From Rhizaria sp. SCN 62-66 (taxonomy: Eukaryota): 64,000 nt of DNA. The DNA is taken from positions 62,001-126,000 of the forward strand of contig MEDY01000054.1 of the NCBI GenBank assembly GCA_001724265.1. The letters run 5' to 3'. Shown piece by piece: positions 3,965-38,441 of this stretch. The stretch's first letter is position 1; each line of letters begins with the position of its first letter. Below the pieces are notes generated by a model. The model made no database searches. It saw only the letters and a program-made list of their open reading frames with translations, and was not told the DNA's origin. Position numbers and translations under genes: made by a program.

Positions 3965-5352
3965 AAGCCGGCCCCGCGGCGTCCCGTTCGTTGCGCTCTC
4001 CCGCCACACAGCAGGGCGGCGGCGTTCAAAGCAACAACAATGGCAATGCTAACGGCAACGTCGGTGGCTCGTTTAGCAGTCAGTTCTTTGGCAATGGCAA
4101 CGGCAACAACGGTCACAACGGCGCTCTGCGTGGCAGCAGCAGCGAACGCTTGCTGGCCCACTCCGCCCTCGTCTACCCCAGCGGCAGCGACTCTACTGCT
4201 GTCGCCGACGGCAGCGGCAACGGCGGCGGCGGTGGCGGCTACTACAGAGGCTCCTCTGGTGAGGCCAAGGACGGCGACGTCGACGTCAGCCGCGCCACAT
4301 CCCCCCAGAGCGCGCGCCAGCCCAGAAACGGCCCTGCCTCGACCAACGCTACTGCCAATGGTGGCGACGATTTGGCTCAGATTCGCGCCATCGCACAGTT
4401 CCACATCGGTCAGCTGGCGCTCTTGCGGGGCCGGATCGGGACTCAGCGCGCAGGCGCCACCCGCACGCCTCCGCTCTCTGGCGGCCCCGTCCTCGCCACA
4501 TCCTCCGCTCAGCAGGCAGGGCAGCAGCAGCAGCAGGGGGGCGGGTCTGGCGCTGTGGCATCGCTGCCCGGTGTCCGGGGCGCGGTCAGCTCGCAGCCCG
4601 GCTCGCAAGCCGGCTCGCAGTCGCACTCGCCCGCGCAGACGCAGGGAGGACTGCCGGCGCCTGCGCCCGTCAGCAAGTCGCAGGCGCAGCAGCCAGAGGG
4701 GGCACTGCTGCCCGCCCTTGCCGTGTATTCCTCCCAGTCCCAGTCTCAGGTGCAGTCGCTGTCCGTGTCGATCACTGCCCCGCCCGTCGTCATGGCCTTT
4801 GGCGGCAGCGCTGGCAGAAGCCATAACAACTCCCCACCTCTTGGCGCATCAGGCTCCGTCGCTGGCGGGTCTGGCGCTGGCGGCGGTGTCGCGTCGCCGT
4901 TCCCACTCTCAGACTACCACAAATTCCTCTACCACCGCTGCCTGTCGCTGCTCGGGAAGAAGACGTTCCTGTCTGCCTACACGTTCATCAAGCACGCGCG
5001 CCGGGGCCAGCCATCGGCCGCAGCGGCGGACTTGGTGATGCAGTCGCCGGCGGTCCAGGAGCATTTGACCGCGCTGATGGGGGCGGAGAACGCGACACTG
5101 TGGGGAGATGTTGAGGCACTCGTCCTCGCTGAGTTGCAACATGAGACCGAGCAACAACACCAGCAGCAACAGCAGCAGCAGTTGAGTCCCGACGATCACC
5201 AGCAGCAACAACAGGGTCAGGGACAACAGGGGGTTGCGACCCCGAGCGCGCCCAGCGGCCCGCCCGCTGCCAGCCGAACGGGGGCGCTCAGGGGGCTGCG
5301 GGAGCGGATGCTGCTGCAACAACAGCAAGCGCAGAAGCAACAAGTCGGCTAA
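1..5352 (+). CDS. NIMA-related (NEK family) Ser/Thr kinase, 5'-truncated; exons <1..205 and 389..5352
   Basis: Frame 1 from base 1 reads AKSDVWALGIVIYELCTLKHPFDAQSISALATKILKGVYEPVPMAYSRNIRLLVKKMLTLAPEGRPTI (kinase subdomains IX-XI, NEK-type). Splicing 206..388 restores RPTIAELLQVPFV. A long low-complexity tail follows, with a C-terminal island CLSLLGKKTFLSAYTFIK like that of some NEKs. Ends TAA 5350-5352, then AT-rich sequence. Confidence 0.9.
206..388 (+). other. Spliceosomal intron of NEK gene (183 nt, phase 1)
   Basis: GTACGT...TTCTCTAG, AT-rich; removal restores kinase subdomain XI in frame. Confidence 0.92.
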
Positions 5353-16597: not shown

Positions 16598-18343
16598 TTA
16601 CGATGCAGCCTCGCGGCTGCTGGCAGATAGCTCACGCTCAGCTTCCGGTGGCACGAGCATCTGTTGTTCAGTGCCGACTCCACTGCGCTTGCTGTTGCTA
16701 GAGGCCGTGCTCTCGCCACCGCTCGAGTGGTACGGCACTGACGCCTATCCGGCTGACGCCGCAGTCGCGCGTTCAAGCTCGCCCTCCTTCGCCGCCGCAA
16801 CGGAGGCCGTTGTCGCAGCTGTTGCCGTTGCGGTAGTGGTGACAACAAGGGCGGCGATCGCGTCCTAAGCCGCTGCCGCAGAGGCGGAGGACTGTTCGTA
16901 GGCGTCACAGCGCGTGACAAAGTCCCAGAACTCGCCGAAGTTAAGCCGGCCGCCACTGCAGACACACCGCGTCACGTTTGCGCATGTGCAGACTTTACCG
17001 AGAGCTGCGAAGACAGCGGCAGTCTCGGACTCGGTCATAGAAACGCCGAGTTTGTCGCACACTCTACGCAGCTGCTGCTGGGTCAGCTTCTCAGTCACGT
17101 TGGGCTCACACGCAGCGAACGTGTCGTCTGCCTCAAATGTCACCATCTCAGCACTGGGCTGAGTGGGCACAGACGCGTCGTAACCGTGGTTATGAACACT
17201 GTCATCAGAGCATGCGTGCGTGTTCTGCTCCGGATGGAGGTGCGCAAAGTGACCGTGAGCAGACATCGCGGCGGTGGTGCTCTGATGTGCGTGCGCCAGA
17301 GCAGCGGAAGCCGCGCTCTGCGCAGTCTCGAGCGGGCTGGCGTCGCTGCTCGTGGCGTTCCAGCAGTAGTTCACGGACAAGCTACGGTACTTGTACTCAG
17401 CAGTGTGCGGAGGGTACGTCGCAAAAGCACCGGCATAGGCCGCTGTCGTGTTCTTGCTGTCGTGCTGAGTATGCAGCTGCAGATAAGCAGGGGCCGGAGC
17501 TGATGCAAGTGCAGGCGCAGATGCAAACGCCGGACTGCGTTCGTGCTGCGTACAGCTGAAGCTGCCGCGACTGCTGCTCGCGCCATACTGCGACTGCGCG
17601 TAGTGCAGCGCAGTTCCAATGTGGATTGCGTCAGCGTCGAGCTCAACTTCGTCCTCATCGTCGTTGTCGGCGTTGTCCGTGACATCGCTGTACGAGACGT
17701 TGTAGCGCGCCGGCAGCCCCGTTGCGGCAACAGCGACAGCGAAACTGCCTCCATTGCTAGCGCCTCCATTGATAGCGCCAGCGTTGTCGCGGTGCTGAGA
17801 CTGCGGCGCTCCCAGTGGCGGAAGCAGCACGCCGTGTACAGCGCCGCAGCCGTTGCTGCCCTGAGCAAAGTCTCCGGCAGCGCCATAGCTGAGGCTGCGG
17901 CTCACGACACTGCTCTTCAGGATTTCGCCATTATGGGTATTGACACCGTTGCCAAACAGAGTAGAGCTAGAGAAGAACGGGTGCGCTACAGGCTAGCCCG
18001 CACCCACATCTACACCGGAGTCGATGTTGTGCGCGTGAATCGCGTTAACATCAGCAGCAGTGGCGGGGAGCGAGTAAGTGTTGTATGCGGGGACTGTGTG
18101 GTGGTGAGGCTGGTAGTCAGTCTTCGCTGTCACACCGGCAATCGCGGGCAGGTGAGCCGGAGCGCCTGAGCCCTGGACTGAGGCGGGGAAGCGCTGCCGG
18201 GGCTGCGCAGCTGACATCTGCAAGTGCGACTGTGAGTATGGCTGGGGCTGGGGCTGGGGCAAGCGGAACGAGGTGGGTGTCAGCTGGGAGGCGCCAGGGG
18301 CTGAGGAGTGCAGGGAGACAACATTTCCGAAAGCGCCATTCAT
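16598..18343 (-). CDS. Hypothetical protein (~581 aa) with a degenerate EF-hand-like region; three in-frame TAG codons
   Basis: One frame runs from ATG 18343 to TAA 16598-16600, interrupted only by TAG at 17993-17995, 16865-16867 and 16745-16747. Includes KLTQQQLRRVCDKLGVSMTESETAAVFAAL...GRLNFGEFWDF (calmodulin-like helix-loop-helix). GC-rich coding-like composition lasts to about the TAA. Full length depends on TAG being read as sense. Confidence 0.6.
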
Positions 18344-19137
18344 TCGCTATTAACCAAACAGGGGGCCTCAGTTTGGCGTAACTATTGGATTAAGTTCCGA
18401 CAGGTATCACAGCAGAACCAAACGGAAGATGGTTGTGATACAAAGCGGTCTGCGGATGCAGGAGGAAGCCAGCGAGCAAGGGCCGTGATTATGAAGTTAA
18501 ACGGTTTCATAAGAGATTAATAACCAAAGGAACAAATTTTCAATGGGCTAAGACCCACAAATCAAAAGGTGCATTGCGAGTACAATCTATCCTCACGGCT
18601 GGATATACTTTCACAGAGCGGACAACTAAGGTTCCACCACGAACCAATTTGGGTGCTGAGCTCACAAGTTGTTTGGTGGCAAAATCATCAATCCGCGCAA
18701 AATGGTTTTAAAAACAAATTAAAAAGTATAACGTTGAACGATATCATGAAGCTTCATATCGAACAACAATGTTTGCACTGAGATATAGCGTGAATCAACA
18801 GCGGTTGTGAGGGCCGCGAACAATAAAAACGATTGTGGTGGAAGCGACCGACTGGCGAACGGACTCAGTCAGTCAGAAAAGGAATACTGTATCAAAAGAC
18901 AGTCAAACTGGGACTGGAGGCAGAAGGAGCAACATAGCCTTGATTCTACTGGAGTGCGATCGTCAGTTTATGGGTCAACGCAATTAACTAAGTTTTCTTT
19001 TTATTTCACACTCATTTTTCTTTTTATGCGACTACACGCCTTCATTTCATTGCTGTAGACCGTTTGGCAAGTCTCACTTCCCGACTAAGATACCCTCCGG
19101 TCTAGCACGCGCCCCAGCCAAGTCTCTGGGGTCACAA

Positions 19138-19163
19138 CCCCCCCCCCCCCCCCCCCCCCCCCC
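19138..19163 (+). repeat. C26 homopolymer tract
   Basis: 26 consecutive C, ending 40 nt upstream of the ATG at 19204. Confidence 0.9.
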
Positions 19164-19203
19164 GCTTTCCACAGAACGCCAGCGCGGGCCCCGTTCTGCT
19201 GCT

Positions 19204-21929
19204 ATGTTGCGCAAACTCGCGCTTCTGTCACTGCTCAGCTGCCTCCTCTGCTGCGCGCTGGTATCCAGAGCCGAAGCAGCCAGTGCATCTGACATGCCTC
19301 CTCGCTACCCCTCCGACTACGTGACCGTCATGCGCCCCGTCTCCCGCGCGCCCCACGACCCGTCCTCCTACACCGAGGGCCTGTGCCTGCACCGCGGGCT
19401 TCTGTTCGAAAGCTCCGGGCTGCTCGGTGCGTCGGCGCTGTCGACGACTCCGCTGGCATCGCTCTTCACCGCCGCGGCCAGCGAGGCCACGCACGCCGAC
19501 GCTGCCGCAGCAGCCGCTTTCGCCGCGCAACAACAACAACAACAGCAGCAGCGGCAGAGTCGTGGAGTGCTGCCCCAGGACCCAGCGTCCGCCGCGGAGG
19601 CCGCGCTGCTCGCATCTCGATTCCCGGCTCTTTTCCCTTTCTCTCCCCCATCCCCCTCATCAGCCGCCGCGCCGTCCTTTGCTGGCAGTACGTTCGTGCC
19701 GCCGACCGCGCAGCCGCAGTCGTTCCGGCTTCCGTCCCCGTCACCGAATGTTTTCGCTGAGGGACTGGCGGCGTCGGATGGATTACTCTTCCAGCTCACT
19801 CTGTCGCAAAACACACTCCTCGTGTTCAACGCGCAGGAGGTTTCCCGCCGCGCCGCCGAAGCCTCCGCCTCTTCCGCTAGTGCGAGGACGCGGCCCGCTG
19901 CGTCAACTTCGACATCGCACGGCCCGCAGTCGTGGCTCTGGTGCACCGTGCCGCTGCCCGCCGTGTGGCAGGACCCGCGGTTCCCACGCTCACAGCAATG
20001 GTGGGGGCTCGGCGCGTGGGACCCGCTGGACACGGACGCCACGGCCGAGGCGCTGGGGATCGACGTGCGCGCGCAGAGCCACATCATCGACACCGACGAT
20101 GACGACTATACCGACAACCGGAGCCGCAAAAGCAACAAAAACATCAAAAAGCACAGTGCGAGTGCAAGTGCGACGAGCCCGTATGCGTCCGCGTTCGAGC
20201 GCGCGTGGGCCCGCGGGGGCGCCACTGCGCGCGTGTTTTCCCTCTGGGTGAGCGACGGCTCCGCCGCGCTGAGGCTGATGCGCGTCTCACTGGACGACAC
20301 GGACGGGCTTCACGGCGCCGACGGCCCCGCGGGCGGCGCGGCCGGCGACGGCGCGCGGTGCGGCGCCGCGGACTGGGTGGCCGTGGGGCGCGATGCGGCG
20401 GCGGGGCGCAGTGACGCCGAGCAGCGGCAGCGGCAGCACTACGACCCGCAGTCCGCGTACGGCCGGCAGCAGGCGCAGGAGCAATGGGAACGCGCGAAGA
20501 GCCGCGCGCTGCGGGTGGTGACGCCGGCGGGCGCCGAGGTGCGCGGGCTCAATGAGCTGGAGGTCGTGCGGGTCCGCAGGGGCAGCGGCGAGGTTGTCTC
20601 GGAGATTTGGGCCAATGTCCTACAGGTACGTGTGTGGTGTTGATGAACCTGTTCTTTAACAAATTCGATGTATTGCTTGTATTTAGCCTTGTGTCAATTC
20701 TTATGGCTCCCGCTTGTTCAAATGCTGTGTATTTGATTCATTTATGTTGTTTACTGTGTTTTGTTTTAATGTTTCTTAGTCGCCGTGCATTGTGCGCGTG
20801 AACCCCACCACTGGCGTCGTGGCTGGCTGGGTCTTCATGGGCAACCTTGACGAGTACGTCTCAAGTCTCATTCTCAAAGCAAAATGAATATGCCATATAT
20901 CCGTAAATTGTGAGAATGTTTATTTATTGATTGACATCTCTGATGCACAAACTCATATTGCACTGATTATGACACTTTTTGACGTTCGTCTTTCTTGATT
21001 TTCGCAGTGGTGAACACCGGTCCGTGCGCGTGCCCAACGGCATCGCCGCAGTCCACACCACAGCTTCCCCCGGCCCCGACGCGCCGCCCTTCCCATCGCT
21101 GCTTCTGACGGGCAAGCTCTGGCCCTGGCTCTACGAAGCCACCGTCGAACCACTCGCCTCCATCTTCACCGGTCGCAGCAGCAGCGCTTTCCCCTCTGCT
21201 TCACACAGCGCAAACACGGATCACGATCGTGGTTCCTCGTTTGCAGCCTTCGCGGCGCGCCACAGCGCTGAGATGCGTGACGCACTGGCCGCGTCCGCCG
21301 CCGCTGACGCACAGTCCCTCTTCTCTCTTTCCCCATCACCGCCACCACAGTCTCCGTCTCAGCAGCAGTCGCGATTCCAGCTGCGCTCGCAGTCGCTGGT
21401 CGAGGCCGTGCGCAGCCGCAACAGCGCGCGCGACGCGAGCCGTGCGGGCAAGTGGGTCGGCTGGACCTCGGCCGACGCCGACAGCGCCACGGGCGGCGGC
21501 GCACTCACCGGCGACGACGCCGGCGACAACTCTGACACCAATAGTGACTACGCGCGCAGCAACACGGGGCACCGTGGGTTCAGCGGCGCGCAGTCGCTCC
21601 GCAATGCGCTGATCCACGGCCGCCGTGGTGTCGCTGGCCGCGGCGGCGGGCCTGTCGGTGGAGCCGCTGGCGTTGATGCTGCTGTCGGTACGGGTGCGCT
21701 GTCGGCGTCGCCAGCTGTGCCCACGGTGGCAGAGCTCGTGGAGACGCGGTCAGGTGTTCCGCGTGTGTGCCGTCCCGGCCCGCGCAACGGGCTTGAGACG
21801 ACGCCGGAGGACGTGGCGTACCAGCACGCCGTCGTGGCCGCGGCAGCTGACGGCAGGTCTGTCGCCAGCGTCGGGATGAACGGGGGCGGCGACGGCAACA
21901 ATCGTGGCAGCCCCGATGGGCCCTGGTGA
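19204..21929 (+). CDS. Glutaminyl-peptide cyclotransferase, plant/bacterial beta-propeller type; exons 19204..20625, 20780..20853, 21008..21929
   Basis: Signal peptide MLRKLALLSLLSCLLCCALVSRAEA; ordered motifs PHDPSSYTEGL, LFESSG, FAEGL, QLT, WGL, VSDGS, LNELE, IWANV, IVRVNPTTGVVAGW, VPNGIA, LTGKLWP. Ends TGA. Confidence 0.88.
20626..20779 (+). other. Spliceosomal intron 1 of glutaminyl cyclase gene (154 nt)
   Basis: GTACGT...TTCTTAG, T-rich; joins WANVLQ to SPCIVRVNP. Confidence 0.9.
20854..21007 (+). other. Spliceosomal intron 2 of glutaminyl cyclase gene (154 nt)
   Basis: GTACGT...TTCGCAG, AT-rich; phase 2 join restores the frame to the NGIA and TGKLWP motifs. Confidence 0.9.
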
Positions 21930-22308
21930 GTTCCTATGAGGAAACAAAAAGGGAATTCCGTGCTGTGATTTGATTATTTAGTTTTGCTTTTTAAACGCGA
22001 GGTATTTTAAGAATCATGATGATGACAGCTATCTAGTGAAATTAATCATGTTATCACGACCCGAAATAAAGCGCATCATGCTTTGTATGTCTTCGATAAC
22101 AAACGCATTGTTTTAATAATCGTTGTCGTCTTCTCAAACGGTGGTATTTAGCCATAGATGTCCTGATGCACCCAAGACAAGATTCGCTAGATAAGAAGAA
22201 AATGTATTGTCCTAGTACTACATAACTTATGAGTATAATGCATCATCATATCAGACATTATTCACATAGATAGCTTACACAAGCATAATTTCGTGTTTGG
22301 AACCTTAA

Positions 22309-25300
22309 TTACAGCCGGAGCTTCCCGCTATGAAGATCATCGTAGAGTTCTTGTGTCAGCACAACATACCGCTTCGCGGCATCATCACGCACCCACACTG
22401 TATCGCCAACTGCCATTGCCACATCACCACTACCAGCGCTCTTGCTACCGTTAAACAGCTCAAAGCCAGCACGTTGCAGAGCCGTCTTGTTGTGCTTAAA
22501 CGTCGCAGTGACCGTGAGCAGCGACGCCGCCGTCCCGGTGCCGGTGCCAGCGCCATGAGCCGCGCTCGCAGTCGCGGGCGCGGCCCCAGTCACTGCAGCC
22601 ATGGCAGCAGAGTTGTTGTGAGCTGCTGCAGCAGGAGCGGGCGTGCGGAGGAAAACCGGCATTTGCCACGACGCCAGCTGCTTCGACAGCCTGTTGTACA
22701 GCAGCGCGGTGTCAATGCCAGCTCCGACGCCGCTCGCCTGCTGTGATGACGGCTGAATCGCGCCCGCGCTCGCGCCCGCGTGGGCGGCCGTGGCGTTGCT
22801 TGCGTGTGGGATCAAGAAGGCCATTCCAGCGCGGCCGTCGCAGCCTGGCACAGTGACGCCGTACACAACCGCGTCCTCGACAAGTCCCGTCGCCATGACC
22901 ACTTCCTCAACCTGCGAGCACGCACAGTTCTCTCCTTTCCACCGGAACGTGTCTCCGAGCCTGTCGACGAACGTGATGAACCCATCGGCGTCCTTGACCA
23001 TGAGATCCCCGGAGCGGAACCACTCATCGCCGTGCGCAAACACGTCCGTGAGCACCTTGCGGCGCGTCTCCTCCTCGGTGCTGTAGCCCGACCACTGTCG
23101 CAGCGGGTCCGAGCGCACGATCTTGCCCACCAGCTCGCCGGGCTCGCCGGGCAGGCACTCGACGCAGAGCCCGTCGGCGTCGCGCACGGGCTCCATCGCG
23201 CTGTCCACAGAGCTCGCGTCGCGTACCCCGCTCTCCAACGCGTCGCTGCTAACACTGTTGGTACTCGTGCTCGCAGGTGTGGGCGAGCCCGGCGCGCCGT
23301 GCAGGCGGACGATGTGGACGGGGTAAACGAGGGTCGTGACCCATGGGAGGTAGCCACACGCGCCGACTTTGTTCATGGTGTTGACCAGAGTCGCGTTGCC
23401 CTCAGTCGAGCCGTAGAACTCGCCCACGTAGCCCACACCGAAGCGCGCCTAAATAGAAGATGTAAAACAAAATGATGAAACATCACGCATTTGAGGCGAA
23501 GTACAATATCAATCAAGGATTATGAAAAATTGCGTATAGGTAAAGTGATGGACAAATTCGTCGGAGATATAAGCGATACGATCGATCGATAAGTAACATG
23601 TGGTGAATACGCGAACAAAGTTCACTTGCGTACCTGAAAGCGCGCCCAAACCTCTGCACGCATGCCGTTGCCGATGGCCTTCTTGACCCTGTGCGCACGG
23701 TCACTCTGCGCGGGCGGCGCTGCGAGCAAATAGCGTGCCAGCTGCCCGATATACTGCACCACAGTGACTCCGTAGCGCGCACAGTCGGGGAAAAACGCCG
23801 ACGCGGAGAACTTGCGTCGCAGCACGAGCCCGGCGCCGAGCCACCAGGACATGCCGACGCCGAGTAGGCCACCCGATGAGTGGTAGAGCGGCAGCGGGCA
23901 GTACACGCGGTCGCCGGGCGACAGCCGGTGCATCGTGGAGAAGGACACGCCCGCCATGAAGAAGCGCGCGTGGCTGACCGTGGCCGCCTTGGGCAGACCG
24001 GTTGTGCCGGAGGTGTAAATCAGGAACAGGGTCGAGTGCGGGCCGGTCGCAGGCGTCAACGGCGCCACTGCAGCGCCGGCGCCGGTGGAAGTTAAGCCGC
24101 CGCCGGCGCTCAGTGAGATACTGTGGGGCGAGGCGGGGGCGCGCGGGTACATGCACCGCAGAGGCACGCGTGCGCTCGCAACTTCACTCTCGGCACGCTC
24201 TGCACTCGCGAACATACAGCTAGCGCTCGCGCCAGCGCCCACAGCAACGGCGGCAGCTTCAGTCCTAGACGTGAGTGCTGCAATCGCGCCTGCCGCGGCG
24301 AAGTCGCTCGCGTCATCCTCGTCGTGGTCGCGTTCAGTCAACCGCGCAAACCCACCGCGTGCAGTGTGAGATGAAGACGCTGCAGCTGCGACGCCGCAGT
24401 GCTCACAGTTGCAGTCGCTCTCGGCACATGCGCGCTCACAGTCGCCCGCACCCTCGCCCCCGCCCCCGCCCCCGCTGCGGCTCGTGGGTGTGTAGCCAGG
24501 CAGCGGCTGCAGGTGCCAGAGCGCCTCGACGGGACACGCGCCGCACAGACGGCCGCTGCGGAGCGCGCCGGCGTTGGCTAGCACGGTCACGGCCGCCGCC
24601 AGAGGGGCCGTGGCGCGGCTGCCGGCGAGCACGGACAGCGCAAGGCCGCGCGCGACGCTGTAAAGGGCGCCTGTCACAAAGGCGCAAGGGCCGCCACGGG
24701 CGCGGGTGTGAGTGCGGGCGCAGGCGTGGGACGCTGCTACAGAGCCCCACGCGGTCGTGTGTGGTGCCGTGACGCCTCTCGCAGCGGGGGAGAGCGGGCT
24801 AAGACTGAAGCTGTCGACGCGGCCGCGGCTGGAGGCGAGCGCAGGGCTGCTTGTGCTGTTGCTGCTGCTGCTGCTGATGCGGGTGCGGCTGGAGTCGCGG
24901 CTGCCGCTGTCGGGGCCGTGGTGTGCGAGGTGGTTCCGCGACTGCGGCTACGGCTGAGACTGCGATCGCAAGTCGACTGACGCAGCACCAGCAGCAGACG
25001 CAGAGGCAGCAGCAATAGGGGCACAGTGACGCCGATGCGGCTGCTGTTGCGATGCAGTCGCGCTGGCGCAGCCAACGCACCGCCCCAGCACCATGGTGGC
25101 GTCGTGTAACACAAAGCCGACCTCGACGAGAGCGTCCGCCCAGTGGCTGTTAACCATGGCAGCAGTCAAACTGTCCTCGATCCTGCCCATCACCCCAGCA
25201 CACGCACTCGCGCTCGCGCTCGAACTGGCGCTCGCGCTCGAACTGGCGCTCGAACTGGGGCTCGCGTTGGAGCTGTTGCTATGGTTGGATCTGTTGCTAT

Positions 25301-26150
25301 CGTTGTTGGCGGCATTGCAGTGCGTCGCAGCAGCGGCCGCGCGCGCCGTATGAACGCAGATATCAAGCCCGTCGACGGGGCAGCGAACAAGCCACTGCGG
25401 TGCGGACAAAGCTCCAGTGCCAGATGATGACGCAGCAGCAGCAGCAGCAGCAGCAGTGCCATTGTTATGCGTAGCAGACGCAGCAGCGACAGCGGCTGCG
25501 CGCGCGGCGGCGACGGCAACTGCGGCGGGTGACTCGCCCCACAACGCAACGTGCGCAGCCGTTACACTGGTGTCCGCAGTTGCGGTGGACGCAGCGGTTT
25601 CATCAGGGCACTCCCAGAGCTCCGTTTCCGTAGCGAGCGCTGGCGCGATTTCGGCCGCCAGCGCAGCACACTCGGCGCCGTACACAAGCACGGCCGCGCC
25701 GGACTCGCGGATGGCGTGTAGTAGCGGTGCGCCGCGCATAGTAGCGTTGAGTAGCGCGATTCGGCAGCCAGCGCGCGCGAGGCCGAGCCAGAGTGCCACA
25801 AATGCGGGGCGAGAGTCCATCAGCAGCGCGACGCACGCGCCCGGCTGCAGCGACACGCGCGGGGACGTCGCCCAGACGCGCACGGCGGCGCTGGCGCCGT
25901 CGAGCGTGGCGAACGAGAGCAGGTGCGCGCCGGAGAGCAGCGCGGGCGCGTGCGGGCGCAGGCGGAGCTGGCGGGCGAAGACGTCGGGCGCCAGACCGCC
26001 CGCGCGCACGAAAAGCAGGGTGCGGACTTTGACGTAGAGGAAGCGCGCGATGTAAGCGCAGAGGGCGAGCTGGCGGGAGAGGTAGGCGCGGGAGCGAGCC
26101 GGGAGCAGCGCGGAGAGCAGGAAACCCACCACGATCAGGAAGATGATCAT
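22309..26150 (-). CDS. Fatty acid transport protein / very-long-chain acyl-CoA synthetase (FATP/SLC27-like); exons 26150..23634 and 23448..22309; one in-frame TAG at 24948-24950
   Basis: N-terminal hydrophobic anchor; VALLMDSRPAFVALWLGLARAG...ALLN; IYTSGTTGLPKAA (AMP-binding); YCPLPLYHSSG; RRKFSAS; QYIGQLARYL; EFYGSTEGN; WFRSGDL; FVDRLGDTFRWKGEN; GRAGMA; TATFKHNK; terminal GKLRL then TAA. The ORF-track pieces 24948..26165 and 23622..24677 share one frame and are separated only by a TAG. Confidence 0.92.
23449..23633 (-). other. Spliceosomal intron of FATP gene (185 nt, phase 0)
   Basis: GTACGC...ATTTAG on the minus strand, AT-rich; joins VWARFQ to ARFGVGYVGEFYG. Confidence 0.93.
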
Positions 26151-26838
26151 TGTTATCTGTGGCAAGGAAACAAGGTTGAGACTGCAGTTGACGCGTGCGA
26201 CGCGGTATTAGTGAGCCGCAGATGCGCGGTATAACCAAGAGGCTTCCGATAAGCTATCCGTGTGTCTACCTTCCTGGTGTTGCTTTAGTCCACTTCTGTG
26301 CCGCAGTCTTGGCGCAATTTAGCAAAGCATTGAAGGGGTTCAACATGGAGGGGTGAGCCTACTTCGACAAGGTCGTTTGTTGTGAAGAGATCGTCAGTGG
26401 ATGTACTATTGAAACGGCAAATATGAAAAATTGTTTTCAATAATAATCCTTAATAATACTTTGGAGTCGAAGTGTTATATCAAGATGTGCGTTCCTGACG
26501 CTCCCACGACGCCCGTTCGTCCGCGCACAGTCCAGTCACCGGCGAAGGTGATTGTAGTGTAACCATGCATTGGTAACTGGTGTGACTGTAGCGAATTATC
26601 GTCCTTGACCACATTACTCTAGTTGAACAGCATACATCCCCAAACCTTGTCTTTTGACCGTTGTCTTGTTTGTTATGACTGAATGAGAGTGTTATTCATG
26701 AAATATTATATTGGTGTATGGTGGTGACGCTGTTGCAGCGAAAAAGACGAAAGATACAAAACAAACTATTATAACCCGGGCAAATCCATCACAAACCAGG
26801 CAGTATACTGTGCTACGTGGAGATCTCACGGCAGTCCT

Positions 26839-28151
26839 TTACAAATCAAGCGCAGGCTTCTTGGTGCGCGCCTTAGTGACGGGGTCGGCGGTGAACTCCT
26901 GGGTCATGGCCAGAATTTCGTTGATCTAAAAGGGAAAAGAGACACAGTGAGAGTGAAAACAATAGCGCGAAACAAGTGAGCAATCAGAATATAATGGAGA
27001 AACTAAGAACATTGTCACAAATCGGCATGACATGTGTTCAAACTATCATCATCGCACAAGCATATGATTGAACGTGGTCAATAAGAACGTACAGTGTGCT
27101 GAAGGTCGCGCAGATCGTTGTTGAACATGATGCGCAGCGCCGCGCTCGCCGCGTCCACCTCGGCGTCCCCCGTCTTAACGGCGGCGTCGGCCAGCGCGGC
27201 AAGCTCCTTGCGCGCGCCTTCCACGGTCACCACGGCGGCGACAGCGGCCTCGGCGCGGCGGCGGCGGCGCTGCGCGGTGGCTTCTGCGTGCGCGCCCAGG
27301 TCGCGGGGCTTGATCGCGGTGCCGGACTCGTAGACCGAGGACAGACTGCGGATCTGGCTCGGCGTGAAGACGCCCTGCTCGGCCGCCACGGCTGCGTTGG
27401 TCTGCGCGGCGGCCGCGGCGGAGGCGGCCGAAGAAGACACGGAGGGCGAGGCCACAGTCACTGCGGCTGCGGCCGCGACGTGGAGGTAATCGCTCTGCAC
27501 GCGGCGGCGCGCCTCGCGCAGCAGCGACAGCAGCGCGTCGTCGGAGGCGTCGGTCGCGGGGGCGGGCAAGCGCAGCACGGCGCACAGAGGGGCCATCGCG
27601 GCCGCAAGCGCGGGGCGGTCCGCGAACGCTGTCATCGGGTCCCCACCAGCGTTGCCAGCGATGCAAGCACCGACAGAGCTGCTCTCTGCGTCAGCAGAGG
27701 CAGTCGCGGGCGTGGCAGGGACCGCTGCGGAGGCGTGCGCGGCCGGGGGCGCGGGCAGCGGGAACTGGGCAGGGAAGTGCGCCTCGGCGGCGGCAGGCGC
27801 GAAGTACTGGGCGGAGGAGGAGTAGAACGAGGCGCGGTCGGCGTACTCGAGGCCCACGGCGCGCGCGGCGAGCCAGTCAGCGAGCGGGGCGCGGTCAGGT
27901 GCGGAGAACGGGTCGCGGGTGAGAATGTCCTTGGGCGCGTCGAGAGTGCCGAGGTACTCACGCCAGAGAGCGAGCCAGTCGTCGCTGAACTCGAGGGAGC
28001 GGAACGGAGCGCGGTCTTCCTGGTCCAGCTCGCGGATCTTCTCCTCCTCGAGCCACAGCACCAGAGTCGCGAAGGACGTCCAGTCGGAGAGATCAAGTGT
28101 TGATGCCGACGGATACTCAAGCGCGAAAAGCTTACGCTTGATCGAAGCCAT
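26839..28151 (-). CDS. RTRAF: RTRAF / C14orf166 (CLE, tRNA ligase complex subunit) homologue; exons 28151..27093 and 26925..26839
   Basis: N-terminus IKRKLFALEYP...FATLVLWLEEEKIRELDQEDRAPFR and spliced C-terminus ALRIMFNNDLRDLQHT-INEILAMTQEFTADP match the family pattern. Ends TAA. Confidence 0.85.
26926..27092 (-). other. Spliceosomal intron of RTRAF gene (167 nt, phase 0)
   Basis: GTACGT...CTTTTAG on the minus strand; restores LRDLQHT-INE. Confidence 0.9.
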
Positions 28152-28890
28152 CTAAGTCTGGCGTGAATGCGAAGGGGAATGGAAGGAAAGGGAGGTGAGA
28201 GGAAGTCATGAATCTGAACATGCGTTTTGAGAAGTAAGATATATATTGAGCGTAGTGTGGCAAATTGAGTCAATATAATATAGCACGTTACAGCGAACTC
28301 AACGTGTGTTGGGTGATGTTGTGATCTCATTGCCTCTGTATATCACTTTGATTTGCGGCGCACGTCGGAGACAAGATGCGATTTTTCGTTTGTGGTGGAA
28401 ACGAGATTTCCACCGCAACGAGATTTTGCATTTCTGGTCAGGTGCGACTTGTCGTATTTGTGGTGATTGGTTGATAAACTAAAGTGTATTCAGGTGAATT
28501 AGAGGGGGGTCACAGAGCAGGGATATGTTTCAAAACAGCAAATCAGTGTCGTCATATCTCACGTTGAGAAGACGGAACTTGATACTCTGCTCAAATCACG
28601 AGCAGCGAAGAAGCTATTGTAGTCACGTTAATCAAACACAAAATCCAAACGACTTGCGTGCGGCCAGAAAAAGAACACGATTAATGCTCTGTCAGAAGTA
28701 GTGTTGACAGAGGGCTTTCAAAGTAAGATGGTAGTAATCATATCATATGCAGTTTGTTGGCTGGTGTGTCACACCCTTTCTGAATGACAAACACGAGGAT
28801 TGAGCAATAATAAAGATAAGCAACAGAAAAAATAATATCTTAACACGAAATAATCGTCTAATAGGAAGTGTTTTTCACTGAACTATGGTG

Positions 28891-31800
28891 TCACATGTTG
28901 TTGTTGATGTAATTGTTTGGTAAAGCGAAGACATCACGTTTCTTCTTCGCCTTGGACTCTGACGCCATAGACTCGGACTCCGTCGCCGCGGCAGTCGCCA
29001 CGGGCAGAGACGAGAAGGTCTTGGGCCCCGCCGCACCCGCCGCCACCGTGGGCGCAGCAGGCGCCGGCGACGGGGTGGGTGCTGGCGTCGACGCGGGCGA
29101 CGCCGCGGGCGCGAGGATCTGGGTGAGACCGGCTAGAGACGCAGTCCCCACCTTGTCAGCGCCGGAGACGAGGGGCGAGCTTGCGCCCGCGCTCGCGCTC
29201 TGCCTGCGCTGGCTCGCCTCCGCCTCAGCCGCCCGCTGCTGGTTCGCCAGGATCGCCCCTGTCCGCGCGCGCAGCCCGTCGTATAGTGCCTTGAGCGCTG
29301 CGGCCACGCCTACAGGCCCGGCGCGACGCGCGGGGTCGAAATTCAGCAGGAAGTCGAGCGTCTCGATGAGCCGCTTGCTGTGGCCCGCAAACTCGCACGC
29401 CTGCGGAGGCAGGTAGTCGCGTTCGTTGACGCGCTTACCGCTCGCCAGGCTCTGTGCGACAATCATCACGGTGAAGAAGTTGGACAGGTCGTAGAGCGGG
29501 CGGCCCAGCCACAGCTCGGCCGCGGCGAGCGTGAGCGACCAGGAGTCGCTTGACTGCGTGATGAGGTTCAGACGGCGCCGGTCGTATCTGTTCTGGTGCG
29601 GGTCCGTGGTCTGCGACAGCAGCAGCTGCTCGGGCGACTGGTAGATCTCCGTGCCGCGCGCCACGCGCGTTGCCACCAGCAGCGGCAGCGACTGCTGCGT
29701 TGCGATGCCCGCGCCCGCGCCCGCGCCCGCCGCCGCCGCCGCGTCGGTCGCGCCGGAGAGCCGCGGGTGGTGCCATGTGGCCACCAGCGCGGCGGCACGC
29801 AGACTGGCCGGCGGCAGGATCACCGCGGTGCCGAAGTCGCCCAGTGCAACGCGCGGCGGCCCCTGCTCGCGCGGGCAGGCGGCGCTGGCGGCGGCCGCCT
29901 CCGCCAACGCGATGGCCTCCGTGGCCGCGACGGCGACGTCGCCGGCGCCGTGCACGTTGGCGCGCACGGGGACGCGGACAGGGACGACCCAGTCAGACTG
30001 CAGCAGCGTGCGCGCCTTGCTCTGAATCAGGATGTTGTGCAGCTTGATGTCGAAGTGCGCGACGCCCAACGCGTGCATGCGCGCGCTCGCGTACGCCGCG
30101 CGCGCCGCGAGGGCCAGGACAGCCTTGCGGTGCTCCAAGCAAAGCACGGTGCCGCGGAAAAGGTCTTGCGCAACCGCCGCTGGAGAAGGCCGCTCATCGT
30201 TGCAAACAGTGCATCGGAGGGCGCCGTCGAAATCATCTTCGATCAACGCGGTGCTCATCGCGGTGGCCTGCTTCGTGGTCATCGCCGGCCCTGCCGACGA
30301 CAGCGGGCTGGCGGCCGAGAAGACCCCCGCCGCGCTGCTCACCACCGAGGCTGTCGGCGACGCGCCGGGCAGGGATGTGGTGACGGCGGTGACGGTGGCG
30401 GCGGCGGCGGCGGCCACGCGGCGGTCTTCGCTGCGCTGAGAGGAGACCTTCAGGCTCTTGCGCCACGAGTTGGCGTCTGAGTCGAAAAGCTCCATGATGA
30501 TGGCAACGGCGCCGAAGACGTTCACGTCGTCGGGCTCGGCCGTGTCGCGCCCGCTCGCCACGGAGCCATCGTCGCGGCTGCGGCCGTAGAGGTCGCGGCT
30601 GTGCGCCGTCTCGGCCTGCGCGTCGCGCCCGTACCCCGTGCCCGCATCGGAGCTGGTGCGGAGCGACTGCGCGGGCGCAGAGGCGTCGTCAGCAAACTCG
30701 CTGGAAGTGGCGCGTGGCGCTAGAGCCTTGATGGAGCGCACGAAGCCGAAGTCGATGATCTGACCAACACCTTCGCCCGCGCGCGCGAGGCGCTGCATCG
30801 CGGTGATTTCGTTGAAGATGTTGGGCAGCGTGTTGTACTCCCACGTGCCCTTGGGCACTTCGAGCAGCTTCACGGCGACCCTGCGCGTCGTGTAGGGCCG
30901 CAGCGGGCAGCGGCGGTGGCACGGCACGACGCACGACGCCGAGACCTCGCGCGCGGTGAGGTCCTTGGCGGCGCGGGGACAGAAGTGCGCGTGCTTGGCG
31001 TAGTTCGCCCACCGCGGCATCGCGGGCGTGTACGTGGCCGAGATTACCTTGCCGAACTGACCGCGGCCGAGCATGCGGTCGATGCGGACCGAGCCGTGCA
31101 CCATGTCGACCTCGGCCCACGCGCCGGCGGCGGCAGAGAGCTATGCGGGCGGTGGCGGCAGCAGCAGCGGGAGAAGCGCCGGGTTTGGGGTCAGCGTCGG
31201 CGCCGCAGCAAACGAGAAACCGAAGCCAGACGCGCCTGCGAACCCCGAGGCCGGAACACTGGAACTGAGGCCCCACTGCGCGCCCCCGCCGCGGACGGGC
31301 ACAGACGGGTTGAACGCGCCAGCGGGCCGCGAGTCCGTGCCATCAAATGAGACCGGGATCGCGCCGGCGATGTCGACCAGCGGCTGCGGCGACTGGAACG
31401 TAAGCGCGGCGTGCGCCGCAGTGACAGCGCCGTAGAGCGGGCTGTGCGACGGCGACTGGAACAGACTGGGCAGCTCCGGCCCCGTGCCCGGCGTGCGCGA
31501 GGGCGAGATGAGCGGGGTCGAACCCTGCGGCCCCGTGCCCGGCGTGCGCGAGGGCGAGATGAGCGGGGTCGAACCCTGCAGCGGCAGCGGCACGGGCCCG
31601 TCCAACTCCTGGTGGTCGAGCAGACGCGACACGCGCGCCGCGCCTGCGCCTGCAGGCAGCGGGGCGCGCACCATCGCCGCGCCGGCCGCCGCGTTCGCCG
31701 ACACGAATCTCAGAGTTTGCGTCGGGGTTGGGATCATCGCCGCGGTGCTGCCCAGCGCAGTGTTCTGGCCGAACATCAGCGGGGATGGCGGCGGCGGCGG

Positions 31801-34800
31801 GAGAACCGCGTCGCGGGCAAGGTTGGGGAAGCACAGCGGCCAGGCAAACGGCGTGATGAGACGCAGAAAGCGCAGCGCGGGGACGACTGGCGTGCTCGCG
31901 GCCAGGTGGTGACGCGGGATGTCCGTCTCGTGTGCGCGCACTGAGTTGAGCAAGCACGGAAGCATCCTCTGCAGGTCGTCAGGATCAGACTTCGTGCCGT
32001 CCTCACCGTCTTTGCGAGCGTCCGAGCCTTTCGGCTCAGATGTCAAACTGCGGCACGCACGGGCGCGAGCGCGCTCGACGTCGGCCCACAGCGCATCGAG
32101 CGCCTGCTCCTGTCGCGCGGTGTCCTTGGCGACTGCGGCATTGTCCTTGAGCTCCAAGTGGCCGACGAGGTGGACGAGCATGGACCGGCCGACGAGCTGC
32201 AGCGAGGCCGCAACAATGCCGCAAGACATGCCGACTTCGGCGCGCCACGGCTCCACCACGGGCGCAGGCGCCATCGCGCGCGACATCGCCATCGCCAACG
32301 CCATGCCCGCGCGGGACTGCGCGCTCTGCACCGCGCGGGACGCCGCTATAGTCGTTGGGGCATCGTTGTGGCCGTTGCCGTTGCCGCTGCCGTTGCCGGA
32401 GCCATTGCCAGAGACGCGTGCGATGGTGTATCGGTTGAAGCCAGTGTGGCGAAGACCACCGCAGCGCGCGAAAGCGGCGTCGACGATGCTGTCGATGTTG
32501 GCGCGAATGTTTGTCACGTCGTTCTCGCCTGACGCGGCCGCGGCGTCGGTCTCAGCGGCGCCCGACACGCTCGCGAAGTGCGACTTATGCAGGCGCATCG
32601 CGGTCACCGTCGCAGACATCAGCGCTGTATGCGCAGTGGAGCCTTCGTTACCGGCGGCGCGCGCGGCAGCTGACATCGCGGGGACAGACAGAGAGGCGGC
32701 GCGCACAATGTCATCGAATGCATCGGCAACGTCGCCAACGAGGTACTCGTTAGCGAGCTCCTGTGCGCGCACAGTGAAGTCGCTCAGCGGACCCAGTTCC
32801 ATCACCGGTGGCTTGTACAGATCCAGCTTGGCGGCGTCGCGGGGAGAGCGCTTTGCCGCGCCGCTCGAGCCCTTCGGCTTGCGCCGCTTGTCACCGCTAA
32901 CGCTCTCGTCATCCTCGCCGTCGTCGCGCTTGCTGTCCCCGTCCATGCGCTCGTTGAACGGGTCATTGTTGTGCCCGTTGTCATCTCTGCGGTCTCCGCC
33001 GGCCTCCGCGTCGCGCATCTTGGAGATGATCATCGGGTTGAGCCCCACACCACTAGGCGACACGCACAGGCGCAGCAGCAGCCGCATAGCGGCCGTATGC
33101 GCGGCCGTCGACAGCGCAAGCGGCATCGTGAGTTGCGTCGCGTGCACCACGCGCTCGAGTGCACGCGCTTGCCGGTTCGACGTCTCCTGCGTCAGACTCT
33201 GCACCGACTGAGAGCCGGCGCCGCCGAACGCGGGCGGCGAGGCGAGCGCAGAAGTCGGCGACAGCGCGCTGGCCGCCGGCGCCGCGGCGGCGGCGGGGGA
33301 GAGCAACGCCACGCGCAGCGTCTCAGAGCGCTCGCTCATGTGACCCGCGCCGTCGATGAAGATACTCGGCGTCACGTCGTTATTTTGCACCTTAGCACCA
33401 GCCGCGCCAGACGCCGCGGCAGCGGCAGCGGCAGCAGCAGCAGCAGCAGCGGCAGCAGCAGCAGCAGCAGACGCTGCGGGCGCGGCTGAAGAAGAGCCGG
33501 CGTCGACAGAGGCCCCGGGCGAAGGCGATAGCGACAGATCCTGCGGCCACTGCGGCGCCGAGACCGCGCGCGTGACTAAGGGCGGGATCGACAGCGCGTG
33601 GGGCTCGGGGTACGAGCTGCTGACCGAGTCGAGCGCCGCGTCCGAGTCTTCCGCGGTGCCGTCGCTGGCCTGCTGGTACCCATGCGCGCGCGCGGTGCCC
33701 GTCGGCTGTCTCCCGTGCAGCGGCGACGGTGGGTGGACGACGACGGTCGCACTTCTTGTCATATTCTGACCACCGGTCCCTTTGGGCTGATTGGGCTGAC
33801 GCGCCAGGGCGTTAGCGCTAGCGGCCAAGACGCCTGCGCCCTCGCCCGCGGCGTTGAACAGTGCCAGCGGCGGAAGGTTGTTTGGCGAGCGCGAGTCCGG
33901 GCCGGAGCCCGCCACCGCGGCTTCGGGGCTGGCCGCTGTGGGCGACGTGCTTACGGGCGGCTGCACGCGCAGTGTGCTCGGCCGCATCGCCGTCGCGCTT
34001 GCGCTCGCACTCGTCGAGCTCGAACTAGAGCCAGAGCTGGAGCTGGAGCTCGCGCTTGAGGCTGGCACCAGCGCGAATGACTCTGCCGAGCGCGCCGTGT
34101 CGGTCGTGGTGGACCCGTGCGTACCGGGCGCGAGGCCGCGCGCGGGCGCAGGTGCGGGCGGCGCGGCGGCCTGCCAGGCGTTGCTGACGGGGTGCACGTG
34201 CAGAAACATTCCGCACGCGTCCACGACTGGACCGATAGCTGGCGCGGCGATCGGCGGCGACGGCGACCGGGGCGAGTCGAATCCACACTCCCAGAGGTCG
34301 ACAAGGTCGTCGGCAGCGGCGGCAGCAGCAGCGGCGGCAGCTGAAGCCGCGGCGTCTGCAGCGGCACTCGCGGCGGCCGCAGTCAGGGCCGCCGTCTCCA
34401 TCGCCGCCGTCGCGTTGGCCGCGGACACGCGCGCGGGCAGCATGCTAACGGGGCCGGTCTCGTGAAACGCGTGGGGCGACTTCATCACGGGCAGGGCCCA
34501 GTCGTCGATGAGCGCGGCCACGCCCGCCGCGAAGGGCTCCTCGGCGGCCTCGGCCAGCACCTCCGAGTAGGCCAGGTCTTGCGCGCACTGCGATGACGCC
34601 GCGCTCGCGCCCGCAGATGGGTCCAGCCAGCCCAGCGGCAGGCGCAGCAGCGGCTGGGCGGCGATCGCGGCGCCCGCGGCGCCCAACCACGGAGCGCGCG
34701 CGTCCGTGATGCTGTGCGGCGGCTCCAAGGAGTCGTGCGAGTCGCGCATGCGCCGCAGGTTCTGCTGGAACAGCGCCGCGCGCGCTGCGCGCACCGCAGC

Positions 34801-37800
34801 CGGGCTCGCGTTCGCGCCCGGGCCAGCGGCGCTCATGCTGGCAGCGGTGCTAAGGCCGGCGGATTGCCCCGGCGACTGCGCGGCGGTGGGCGAGACGGCT
34901 CCGGCTGTGGCGGCGGCCGAGGTGGAGACCGGGACGGCAAGCCCGGCAGCGGCAGTGCTGCTGGGGATCGCCACGTTCTCCGTCGCCTGCATGGCCGCCA
35001 GCGCCGCGGCCGCGGGCGTCACAGTCACGAACAAGGGGGCAGCGGGCAGTCCGGCGCTGACGGACGCGATCATGGCGCCGCCGCGGGCCGCGGGCGAGGC
35101 TGGCGCGATGCGCGCGCCGCCCGCCGCCGTCGCCGCCGTAGAGGACGGCGAGGGCTGACGCACGGGCGGCAGCAGCGAGGCGCTGGTGACCGCGAGCGTG
35201 CCGGACAGCACCGCGCTGCGCGAGCGCTGCGACTGGCGCAGGCCCGGGGCGCCCGCCGCGCCCTGTTGGGCGGCGGCCGCAACGCGCAGGGCGGGGACTG
35301 AAGCGGTGGAGGCGGCGGCGGAGACGGGGCGCGTCGGGTGCTGCTGCAGCGCAATCGCACCCGCGGCGGCGAGCGTCGAGTGCGTCCCCGACATAGGGCC
35401 CGATGAGGGGCGCGGCGGCCGGTCGGGGGACGCGAAGGGCTCGGGAACACGCGAATGCGACGATGCCGGCGGCGGTGGCGGCGGCGGAAGCGGTGTGCGA
35501 CGGGGCGTGTCAGAGTCGGACGGCGGTGCAGCAGCAATGCGAACAGGCGAACTGTCACGTGAGCCGTCATCGTCCGAAGCGTCCGAACAGTTTGCGTTCA
35601 TAAAAGCCGCGCACGATGACGCCACACTAGACTGGGGACTACTGGCGCGCACAGGCGCTGCGGTGACAAACGCAGAGACACTCTGATCAACTGCTGTAGA
35701 CATCGAGCGCAAGTGAGTGCGCGCGTGCGCCCGGCAACGGGTGCGCATCGGCGGAGAGCGTGGCACGGGCGGCGCAGGCAAGGGCGGCGAGTGACTGCGC
35801 CCTTTGTCCGGCAGACTGGCGGGTCGCGGGCTATCGCGGCGCGAGTCAGAGCCCTGCCAACTACTGTCATAGAAATAACCGGGGACAAGGCCTCCGTATT
35901 GTTCGTCGACCCAGTCCATGGAATCAAGCCCGTCGTCAGAGTTGGAGCGCGCCTCGTACTCCTCAAGCCGGGAGTTCCAATACGCCCGTTCTTCGCCGCC
36001 ATCGTCATACTCGTTGCCGAAGCGAATCGGCATCTCAGGTAGTGGATTCGCCGCGGGGTTTTCCACAAAGCGTTCAAACGCGGCGTCGTCTGGCAGCCAT
36101 ATGTATCGATTCTCAACCATGCGCTCGATAATTGCCTCCTCCGTGATACCTGGGTTCTCCACCGCAAGAGCTGATCGGAACTTCGTAAGAAGTTTGTCGG
36201 CCACAGCACGGACAACAGGGCCCGCCAGCGGCACGCCGCCCATAGTCTGTCGCAGGCTGCTGAGCTGGATAATGAGCTGGAAGCGCATCGCCGCAACATC
36301 AGGCACGTAGGCGCTGCTCATCACACTGGGATCCAGTGACGAGTCGCCCCAGCCGTCGATCAGCAAGTTGTCGTCCTCGGGGTTGTCAGACGCGCAGACG
36401 GAGACGGACCTCACGCTGTTGCTCTGGCTCAGCAGACTCGCAGTGCCGCTGCGGAACGTCGGGCGAGGACTCTTGATGCCCTTGCCGAGTACAAGCTTGC
36501 TGAGAGTCCCGCTTGTCAGCTGAGATGTGGCGGGCGAGTTACGCTTGAGCGCATTCTGGTTGCGCCGCGCCGAAGCCTGAGGCGTGGCGTCGCCGGCACT
36601 TTGGACGCCAGCTGCGGGGGCGCCACTGGAGGTTGCTGCTGGCGGGCTGCTTTCGGCCTGGGTCGGCGTCGGAGCGCTAGAGCTGCCGGACGTGATGCCA
36701 CCGCCGGTGAACGGGCCGAACGACGCGTTCGGCGTGGCACCGACAAGCATGACCTTGTCTTTTGCTTCCTCCTCGTCCTCCGCGCCGTCGTCGTCGCCGT
36801 GGCTGGTGTGGCCCTGCGTCGGCGGCGGCTGCTGCGCGTCAGCTTCGCCAGTGTCAGTAGAGCCCTGAGTCGTTTTGGCATAGTTGGCAGGCAACGACGC
36901 CGAGCTAGACAGCGCTGTGCGTGTTAGCTTTGCTGTGGGCTCTGTAGACGGTGCCTCGGCCGGCGGCACAGCAGAAACCGCCTTGTCAGCGGGAACGTTA
37001 TCCGCCGTAGGGGTGTCGCTCACAGCCATGGAGTCTTCGGTGATGCTTGCGTTGGCGCCCACAACGTCGCCGTCGTCTTCCGACCACATTCCTGACGACA
37101 CATCGCTCGCTGCGGCAGCAGCATCAGCAGCCTCCGCAGCGGGAGCAACGGGTCTGTCATCGTCGGGCTGCACCACAGCCGTGGCTCCGACCATGGGCGG
37201 GGATACGTCGGTTGGCGCGCCTGTGGTGGCGTCAGACGGCGTGTCGCGGGCGGGCTCAGTGCTAAGAAGCCCGCTCTGCTGCAGCATCGCGAGCGCGTGG
37301 GAGCCGCTGACGCCCGAGCTCAACGCCGCCGAGGGCAGCGGCGAGCCCCGGCCCTCGGCAGCGGCAGCGACCGTAGCCGCGCTGGTGGCGGCCGCGCTCA
37401 AGGTCTGCATCGCGCGCGGGGCGATGATGGAGCTCACCGTCGAGGTCGGCGACGTCGGCACGACGCGGTGGCTGGTGAACCCGCTTGAGGACGTCGAGAG
37501 CACGATGTTGAGGTGCTCGCGCGAGTCGCTGAACCGCGTGCGCGCGCTGTTACTGCCACTCTCCGCGCTGGCGCCGAGGCCGAGCGCGCCGCCCTGGAGC
37601 ACGAACGACGGGCCGCGGCTGCGCAGACCGGTGCCGGCCTTGGGGCTGCCGCGCGCGCTCAGCGGCGCCGCCGTGGGCGCGTGCAAGGGACTGAAGGTCG
37701 CGCTGAACGTCGGTGTCGTGACAGTGGAAGACGTATTAGTGGTGGTCATCGAGACAGACGCGCCGACGGGGGTGGGCCCGCTCATGCTGCTGTTGAGCGG

Positions 37801-38410
37801 GTTGTTCGGAAGCCCGCCAGCAGCGTTGCCAGAGAGGGACAAAGACTGCGAGTTGTTGGTGTTGTTGTTGCTGCCGCTGCTGTTGTTCGGGAACACGTGG
37901 TGCAGTGCGTATGCTCCGCCAAAGCCGTGCGCGCTGGACGGCGGCGAGGCGTGCGGACTCGTGAGCGCGGGCGCCTGTAGCGTCGACGTTCCTATCGTCG
38001 GCGACGCCGTGTTGGAGCCGGGACGGCTCGAAATCGGGTGGCCGACGCGGAACGAGTGGGGCGGCGAGCGGTGGCGCAACTTCATCACCGGGGACGAGTT
38101 CTGCGACGACTCGCCGCCCGTGGAGTCGGGGCCCGACCAGGGCGCGGACTTGATCTGCTCCTGGCCCTCGGCGATCGTACTCAGGTCGTTCGAGTTGTGG
38201 CCCGACGTCTGCTGCCACTGGGCCAAAGGGGAGCCCGTATCGACGACGTCGCCGTCTTCGCCGGGGACGTGGTGGCTCACGGTCGCGTACGGCAGGCGGG
38301 ACGACGACAAGGACGAACCGTTCAGGCCAGGCTGCACACGGACAAGCTCCGGCGTATCTTCGTCGGCGACGGCGTTGTCGGCTTCGTTGTTGACAAGATC
38401 ATCATGTCCA

Positions 38411-38441
<31 letters not shown>

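Follow-up and report, generated by a model that had tools for sequence, protein, structure and literature searches.

Five in-frame TAG codons interrupt three genes on the minus strand of a 64,000-nucleotide (nt) stretch of nuclear eukaryotic DNA, positions 62,001 to 126,000 of contig MEDY01000054.1 of Rhizaria sp. SCN 62-66, which is called the window here. These five codons are real, lie inside coding-type sequence and do not behave as stop signals (Table 1). Three of them are found in a gene without a Pfam family (the orphan gene), one in an FATP-like gene and one in a giant open reading frame (ORF) that ends in a protein-kinase domain. Our reading, put forward tentatively, is a change of the nuclear code in which UAG alone has gone from stop to sense, probably to glutamine. 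We infer that UAG is translated, which residue it specifies and the changes in tRNA and eRF1 that would go with it. The window by itself cannot separate UAG as sense from broken gene copies.

In-frame TAG codons within coding sequence

GC-rich blocks (55-77% GC per 2 kb) are interleaved in the window with AT-rich spacers (36-49% GC), and the list of AT-rich blocks with a GC below 0.45 holds 31 entries. Ten complete genes were modelled, together with one 35-kb minus-strand ORF that runs past the window edge; third-position GC (GC3) of the modelled genes is about 0.66-0.90. Eight spliceosomal introns could be defined and all eight are AT-rich with a GTACG donor; they measure about 150-200 nt, and the exons have 60-77% GC.

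A first-pass annotation of this DNA, made from its letters alone, had placed five TAGs on the minus strand and given their peptide contexts, and both were found as described. It had also held that coding sequence continues in frame past each TAG and that no AT-rich intron spans the codon, which the coding scores, the GC blocks and the eight introns agree in upholding. Codon usage was scored as log-odds with the giant ORF as training set. In frame 0 both flanks of each of the five TAGs scored positive, from +0.21 to +0.51 per codon, and the two remaining frames gave negative values; even the stretches of only 39 and 48 codons that separate the last TAGs of the orphan gene and its TAA had this pattern. 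None of the 31 AT-rich blocks overlaps a TAG. In the 120 nt downstream, GC ranges from 0.56 to 0.72 after the five TAGs versus 0.30 to 0.50 after the ten true terminators; the two classes are fully separated, for which the one-sided chance with five versus ten sites is 1 in 3003 (calculated by hand). The row labelled 'QC TGA', an intronic TGA, is omitted from this comparison.

In the orphan gene, a GC-rich block (16605-18335) coincides with the span from the ATG to the TAA and not with any of the three TAGs. The 120 nt that follow TAG 16867-16865 have a GC of 0.68, and from TAG 16747-16745 to TAA 16600-16598, where the GC-rich block stops, there are 48 further codons with a coding score. The TAG of the FATP-like gene lies inside a low-complexity insert of about 490 amino acids (exon 23634-26150), with AMP-binding profile positions 1-127 upstream and 129-308 downstream of the insert in the same frame. 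Across the insert no other stop occurs in frame 0, and the off-frames hold 3 to 9. Between strains, FATP exon 2 shows two nonsynonymous and two synonymous differences (0.55%). Its relatives in metagenome contigs are five loci at 30-41% identity, none of them from this organism.

The giant ORF is intron-less, at least 11,700 codons long and rich in Ala, Ser and Pro, with a GC of 0.68, 0.62 and 0.82 at the three codon positions; the 10,952 codons that precede its TAG matched no Pfam family. This TAG (31143-31141) separates the giant ORF from a C-terminal protein-kinase domain, and the sequences before and after this codon have coding scores of +0.41 and +0.51, respectively. The glycine-rich loop of the kinase (LGRGQFGKV) begins 25 codons after the TAG, a Pkinase match is present, and at the TAG neither a spacer nor an AT block of promoter type precedes the kinase. 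A public protein, P0122, comes from a contig of 2,287 nt; it begins with the Met that follows the TAG most closely, and over 686 amino acids it matches the kinase without a difference (28894-31140, minus strand).

Over the 18,911 modelled codons the internal stops are five TAGs, no TAA and no TGA, and the frame is never broken, as the first-pass annotation had claimed. We also made a census that does not depend on the gene models, in which stops with 40 stop-free codons on each side were collected (361 candidates) and a coding score was then required on both sides. Six of the 361 survived: the sense-strand TAGs at 17995 and 31143, and four stops opposite a modelled gene (three TAG and one TGA). 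No TGA or TAA interruption on a sense strand was found by this census anywhere in the window. The TAG at 10808 (minus strand) was considered as a sixth interruption and rejected; a real membrane protein is encoded on the plus strand there, and this TAG is its antisense shadow. The three other opposite-strand stops are taken to be antisense shadows as well; only 10808 was checked.

Gene ends and the context of termination

The first-pass annotation had all ten genes ending in TAA or TGA, and the tabulated terminal codons of the 10 complete genes bear this out: six TAA, four TGA and no TAG. The six TAA ends (5350, 5731, 15784, 16600, 22311 and 26841) occur in spite of the high GC3 of these genes. 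A 'TGA TGA' at 20641 was considered as a terminator and rejected; it lies inside the first intron of the glutaminyl cyclase gene.

The base that follows the stop is C at three of the five TAGs versus one of the ten true terminators, in a count from which the gene1_partial row and the intronic QC TGA were dropped and in which the +4 base of Tctex was read as T. C after a stop codon is the weakest termination context. This favours a reading in which UAG would be a leaky or ambiguous stop with no dedicated code change, decoded for example by the near-cognate tRNA-Gln(CUG). UAG would then be avoided at gene ends, and would be only mildly harmful in weakly constrained sequence, because termination at UAG is weak. 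Such a leaky stop also agrees with the lack of TAG among the ten terminators, and with TAGs that are few, apparently young and placed only in low-complexity or unconstrained regions. However, no known read-through motif was found after the TAGs, and full-length FATP made by partial read-through alone seems costly. We regard a leaky UAG as improbable.

The TAG sites in independent DNA and RNA reads

Contigs from several sequencing runs were compared with the window. Run X3 is DNA from a different study than the probable source, X4 and X6 contain a strain about 1% divergent, and X7 is a polyA RNA library. Contigs of X3 match 16300-16964, 17003-19124 and 29753-31254 with no difference from the window and cover four of the five TAGs; since these four are letter-identical in X3, they are not assembly errors. 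The TAG at 24948 lies outside all the listed X3 contigs. Depth of X7 was zero in five intergenic bins, and this library therefore behaves as RNA. One of its contigs (16728-17033) is colinear with the window and spans 16865 without a gap, another (30947-31399, 93% identity) is colinear across 31141, and hence these two TAGs are not spliced out. Contig joints were treated as spurious; their sides are short (20-28 nt) and lie in GC-repeat sequence.

The uncovered site at 24948 is what can be said for the TAGs being assembly artefacts or lying inside unrecognised introns. This we find scarcely credible, given the X3 contigs, the RNA contigs, the frame kept at all five sites and the eight introns, every one AT-rich with a GTACG donor and none over a TAG. 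Assembly error and splicing, two of the sources of a false signal named by the first-pass annotation, were thus answered for four sites and for two sites, respectively. Reads with CAG or TGG in place of TAG, which it had named as the mark of assembly error or RNA editing, gave a divided result. X3 keeps TAG at its four sites, but 17995-17993 reads CAG (Gln) in the divergent strain (plus-strand 17995 A>G in X4, at a depth of 6.7, and in X6, at 5.04).

A change made in the mRNA was also considered. Filamentous ascomycetes edit premature UAG to UGG by restorative A-to-I editing (PMC4817773, PMC10776026), and this editing is reported to be strongly UAG-specific and to rescue annotated pseudogenes that include kinases (PMC4817773, PMC11156358, PMC10776026). 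The window resembles it in having genomic in-frame TAGs in otherwise intact genes and a bias to TAG. In the ascomycetes the edited codon is UGG (Trp) and editing is stage-specific and touches a small share of the genes, 71 pseudogenes per whole fungal genome, whereas here three of ten genes are affected and the allelic state is CAG, not TGG. Among the difference rows listed for the runs, 40 of 189, none is an A>G change at a TAG in RNA. No sign of ascomycete affinity was seen for this organism, and correction of the TAGs by such editing appears very improbable.

The same DNA is present in runs labelled bioreactor, wastewater, microbial fuel cell and activated sludge; runs X1-X3 contain 0.93-0.99 of the words sampled from the window, and the strain of the window occurs in three samples of two studies dated 2015-2017.

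UAG as sense or nonsense alleles

The following observations weigh against UAG as a sense codon. The first is its rarity: the codon counts are 5 for TAG, 114 for CAA and 544 for CAG, so that CAA is more than 20 times, and CAG about 100 times, as frequent as TAG. Published UAG-only codes have 1.6-5.4 UAG per gene (PMC5304391); the count here is five in ten genes. The giant ORF has no other in-frame TAG over the 10,952 codons that come before its own, where the off-frames contain 7 to 221 stops of each type. TAG is spread over three of ten genes with three TAGs in one of them, and appreciable use over many conserved genes was not found. None of the five lies in a Pfam-matched stretch and, as the first-pass annotation had already remarked, no conserved alignment column holds a TAG; the protein and metagenome searches returned no orthologue that covers a TAG site. 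The window has no tRNA gene, no Rfam match and no eRF1. It was moreover chosen for its TAGs from a very large scan, and a selection effect applies.

The mutation spectrum belongs with these points. With the GC3-rich codon usage of these genes, 62-71% of single-base nonsense mutations give TAG, and finding TAG at five of five sites is therefore weak evidence (p about 0.12, by hand). That every interruption is a TAG, on which the first-pass annotation had relied, thus holds as a count and loses most of its force as an argument. TAG normally ends 20-25% of genes. If that share holds, its absence from ten terminators has a p of about 0.06-0.11, on a small sample.

The orphan gene carries three of the five TAGs, that is, three in 581 codons versus two in about 18,300 elsewhere. 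A contig of X4 that covers 17350-18343 of it (994 nt) differs from the window at 10 sites, of which eight are nonsynonymous, one is synonymous and one is the TAG/CAG difference. Flanking non-coding DNA differs at 8 of 784 nt, and these 18 are all the differences of the X4 contig in the region. Because both rates are 1.0% and nonsynonymous changes outnumber synonymous ones by eight to one, the gene has no visible constraint at the protein level. It is approximately neutral between the strains, and it is the expected first place for nonsense alleles; the TAG/CAG polymorphism at 17995-17993 has the look of a young nonsense mutation. Two readings of the orphan gene are left: a pseudogene of very recent origin, or a protein that evolves fast. 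A protein search across it with TAG read as Gln returned only P0121, the window's own fragment.

These facts make it possible, if doubtful, that the organism keeps the standard code and that the TAGs are genuine nonsense alleles: three hits in a recently dead or dispensable orphan gene, and one inactivating hit each in the FATP gene and the kinase tail of the giant gene. Such alleles would look TAG-specific because CAG, GAG, TCG and AAG are abundant in GC3-rich genes. The TAG-dominated spectrum that fits codon usage, the neutral orphan gene, the single strain-specific TAG with CAG in the other strain, the extreme rarity of TAG and its lack in conserved domains, and the selection of the window for its TAG pattern all agree with ordinary nonsense alleles or a young pseudogene.

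Other features do not agree with them. Stops are the outcome of 2.3% of the substitutions in the orphan gene, as estimated from codon usage, and three neutral nonsense hits imply about 130 substitutions (7.5%, by hand), whereas the strains have diverged by only 1%, at which about 0.4 nonsense changes are expected (by hand). Decay by about 130 substitutions should also have left frameshifts and other stops; none is seen over 581 codons. Ordinary pseudogenes differ further from what is seen here in that the five lesions include no frameshift, TAA or TGA, where a mixed set might be looked for. A strain recovered from three samples of two studies over 2015-2017 would have three of ten genes inactivated, the FATP gene and the kinase keep their full coding signature downstream of the TAGs, and none of the ten terminators is TAG. 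Taken together, these points suggest that an in-frame TAG is at most mildly harmful, as complete or partial translation of UAG would make it.

The uncoupling of UAG from UAA, the central claim of the first-pass annotation, is accordingly left with support on one side, from TAGs that are real, internal, never terminators and matched by CAG in another strain, and with their rarity, their clumping and the nonsense spectrum on the other. We return to UAG as sense as a tentative reading. A closer version of it, that a GC-rich, intron-poor eukaryote of wastewater and bioreactors reads UAG as Gln, uncoupled from UAA, at a very early or low-usage stage, is held with slightly more reserve. Under UAG as sense, UAG would be an ineffective terminator, translated most likely as glutamine, and UAA and UGA would end all genes. 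A tRNA-Gln with a CUA anticodon, one base from CUG, could decode it, alongside an eRF1 that would no longer recognize UAG. The codon would be used sparingly (5 of 18,911 codons, 0.03%) and only in unconserved low-complexity stretches, and it would already have gone from the terminators while still segregating against CAG between strains. Sparse use together with this polymorphism agrees with a recent reassignment, or with poor decoding and selection against the codon except in unconstrained sequence. For the identity of the residue, CAG at the one polymorphic site is a hint of Gln; it falls short of proof because the orphan gene tolerates amino-acid changes.

Comparison with known UAG-only codes

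Nuclear codes in which UAG alone is reassigned are, to our knowledge, documented in very few lineages, and hardly any intermediate stage of a stop-to-sense change has been seen. In the literature searched, supplements aside, there was no report of UAG reassignment in a GC-rich wastewater eukaryote.

The fornicate Iotanema spirale reads nuclear UAG as Gln and retains UAA and UGA as stops, with 204 in-frame UAGs in 126 genes; many of these stand at conserved Gln columns, and for the mechanism a tRNA-Gln(CUA) that arose from CUG has been proposed (PMC5304391). The window is like Iotanema in that UAG is the sole in-frame stop, genes end in UAA or UGA, Gln is suggested and a tRNA-Gln(CUA) is proposed. 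It is unlike Iotanema in having five TAGs in ten genes (18,911 codons); conserved columns hold none of them, and a single unconstrained gene holds three. Set against Iotanema, this organism is also GC-rich, has mitochondrial-type genes (COQ8/ABC1 and Coa1, both in the window) and comes from wastewater-type samples.

The rhizarian exLh reads nuclear UAG as Leu, with 384 in-frame UAGs in 71 genes at conserved Leu positions and with termini that are only UAA (56) and UGA (15) (PMC5304391). It shares with the window a UAG uncoupled from UAA and the restriction of termini to UAA and UGA. In contrast to exLh, the sole comparative hint here is CAG (Gln) and not Leu, and UAG use is far lower.

Phyllopharyngean and other ciliates are reported to include UAG-only codes or split meanings of UAA and UAG (PMC11687900, PMC10553269), and here too UAG would be reassigned independently of UAA. 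The likeness ends there: the genes of the window have 60-77% GC, its GTACG introns measure about 150-200 nt, a 35-kb ORF is present and nothing is ciliate-like. Ciliate genomes are AT-rich.

Other features of the window

The heavily inserted protein-kinase domain that ends the giant ORF has its best foreign match at E = 8e-22 with 38% identity among 1.84 billion representatives, and a search across the junction of giant ORF and kinase in the same set returned only P0122 besides weak kinase matches. An exact 50-base stretch beside the TAG of the giant gene had no match in genome contigs. The C-terminal tail of P0122 diverges from the window in a frameshift-like manner, and an indel variant or an assembly error is possible near 28,950-29,000.

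Base composition contrasts sharply over the whole window, with exons at 60-77% GC and introns and spacers at 36-49% GC. The cause of the high exon GC, whatever it may be, leaves introns and untranslated regions unaffected. The ORFs 18988-20643 and 20973-21929 (plus strand) form a single three-exon glutaminyl cyclase gene (Glu_cyclase_2) that spans 18988-21929. The RLL protein, the glutaminyl cyclase and the kinase are swollen by inserts in a way similar to the FATP-like enzyme. No Pfam family was assigned to several of the large ORFs (346-5352, 7210-11046).

Matches of ABC1 are about 45-50% identical and mostly bear green-plant names, which may reflect the composition of the database; in genome contigs ABC1 had no match. 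Exon 2 of the Tctex gene matches generic dynein light chains. The one relative seen is P0002, on an 11.4-kb contig, with 78% identity in ABC1, and the lineage is almost unsampled.

Table 1. Coordinates of the TAG codons, genes, terminators and introns in the window
Feature	Position	Strand	Remarks
TAG, giant ORF/kinase	31143-31141	-	context PPPPA*LSAAAG
TAG, FATP-like gene	24950-24948	-	context SQSQP*PQSRN
TAG no. 1, orphan gene	17995-17993	-	context DVGAG*PVAHP
TAG no. 2, orphan gene	16867-16865	-	context SAAAA*DAIAAL
TAG no. 3, orphan gene	16747-16745	-	context TAASAG*ASVPY
Orphan gene	16598..18343	-	ATG 18343 to TAA 16598, 581 codons with TAG read through
FATP-like AMP-binding gene (acyl-CoA synthetase)	22309..26150	-	two exons, intron 23449-23633, TAA 22311-22309
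Giant low-complexity ORF and kinase	28891..63999	-	open at window edge, TGA 28893-28891
Ten terminators	5350+, 5731-, 11044+, 11485-, 15784+, 16600-, 21927+, 22311-, 26841-, 28893-		each where GC-rich sequence gives way to AT-rich sequence
Example of a true terminator, TAA of orf346	5350..5352	+	
Introns 1 and 2, ABC1/COQ8 gene	13110-12915, 12734-12569		GTACG donor, AT-rich
Two introns, Tctex1 dynein light chain gene	15125-15299, 15544-15679		GTACG donor, AT-rich
Two introns, glutaminyl cyclase gene	20626-20779, 20854-21007		GTACG donor, AT-rich
Intron, FATP-like gene	23633-23449	-	GTACGC...TTTAG
Intron, RLL/RTRAF-like gene	27092-26926		GTACG donor, AT-rich

Significance

If the TAGs are nonsense alleles instead, the window is a warning: where a genome is GC3-rich, most nonsense mutations produce TAG and can therefore pass for a UAG reassignment. 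If UAG is sense, gene calling with the standard code shortens proteins, and in the public gene calls P0121, P0122 and P0137 the kinase and the orphan gene are already cut at their TAGs. The near-absence of TAG, its restriction to unconstrained sequence and the TAG/CAG polymorphism would then show what codon capture is like in its first steps, and the organism would offer a natural snapshot, outside the ciliates, of the capture of a stop codon under way.

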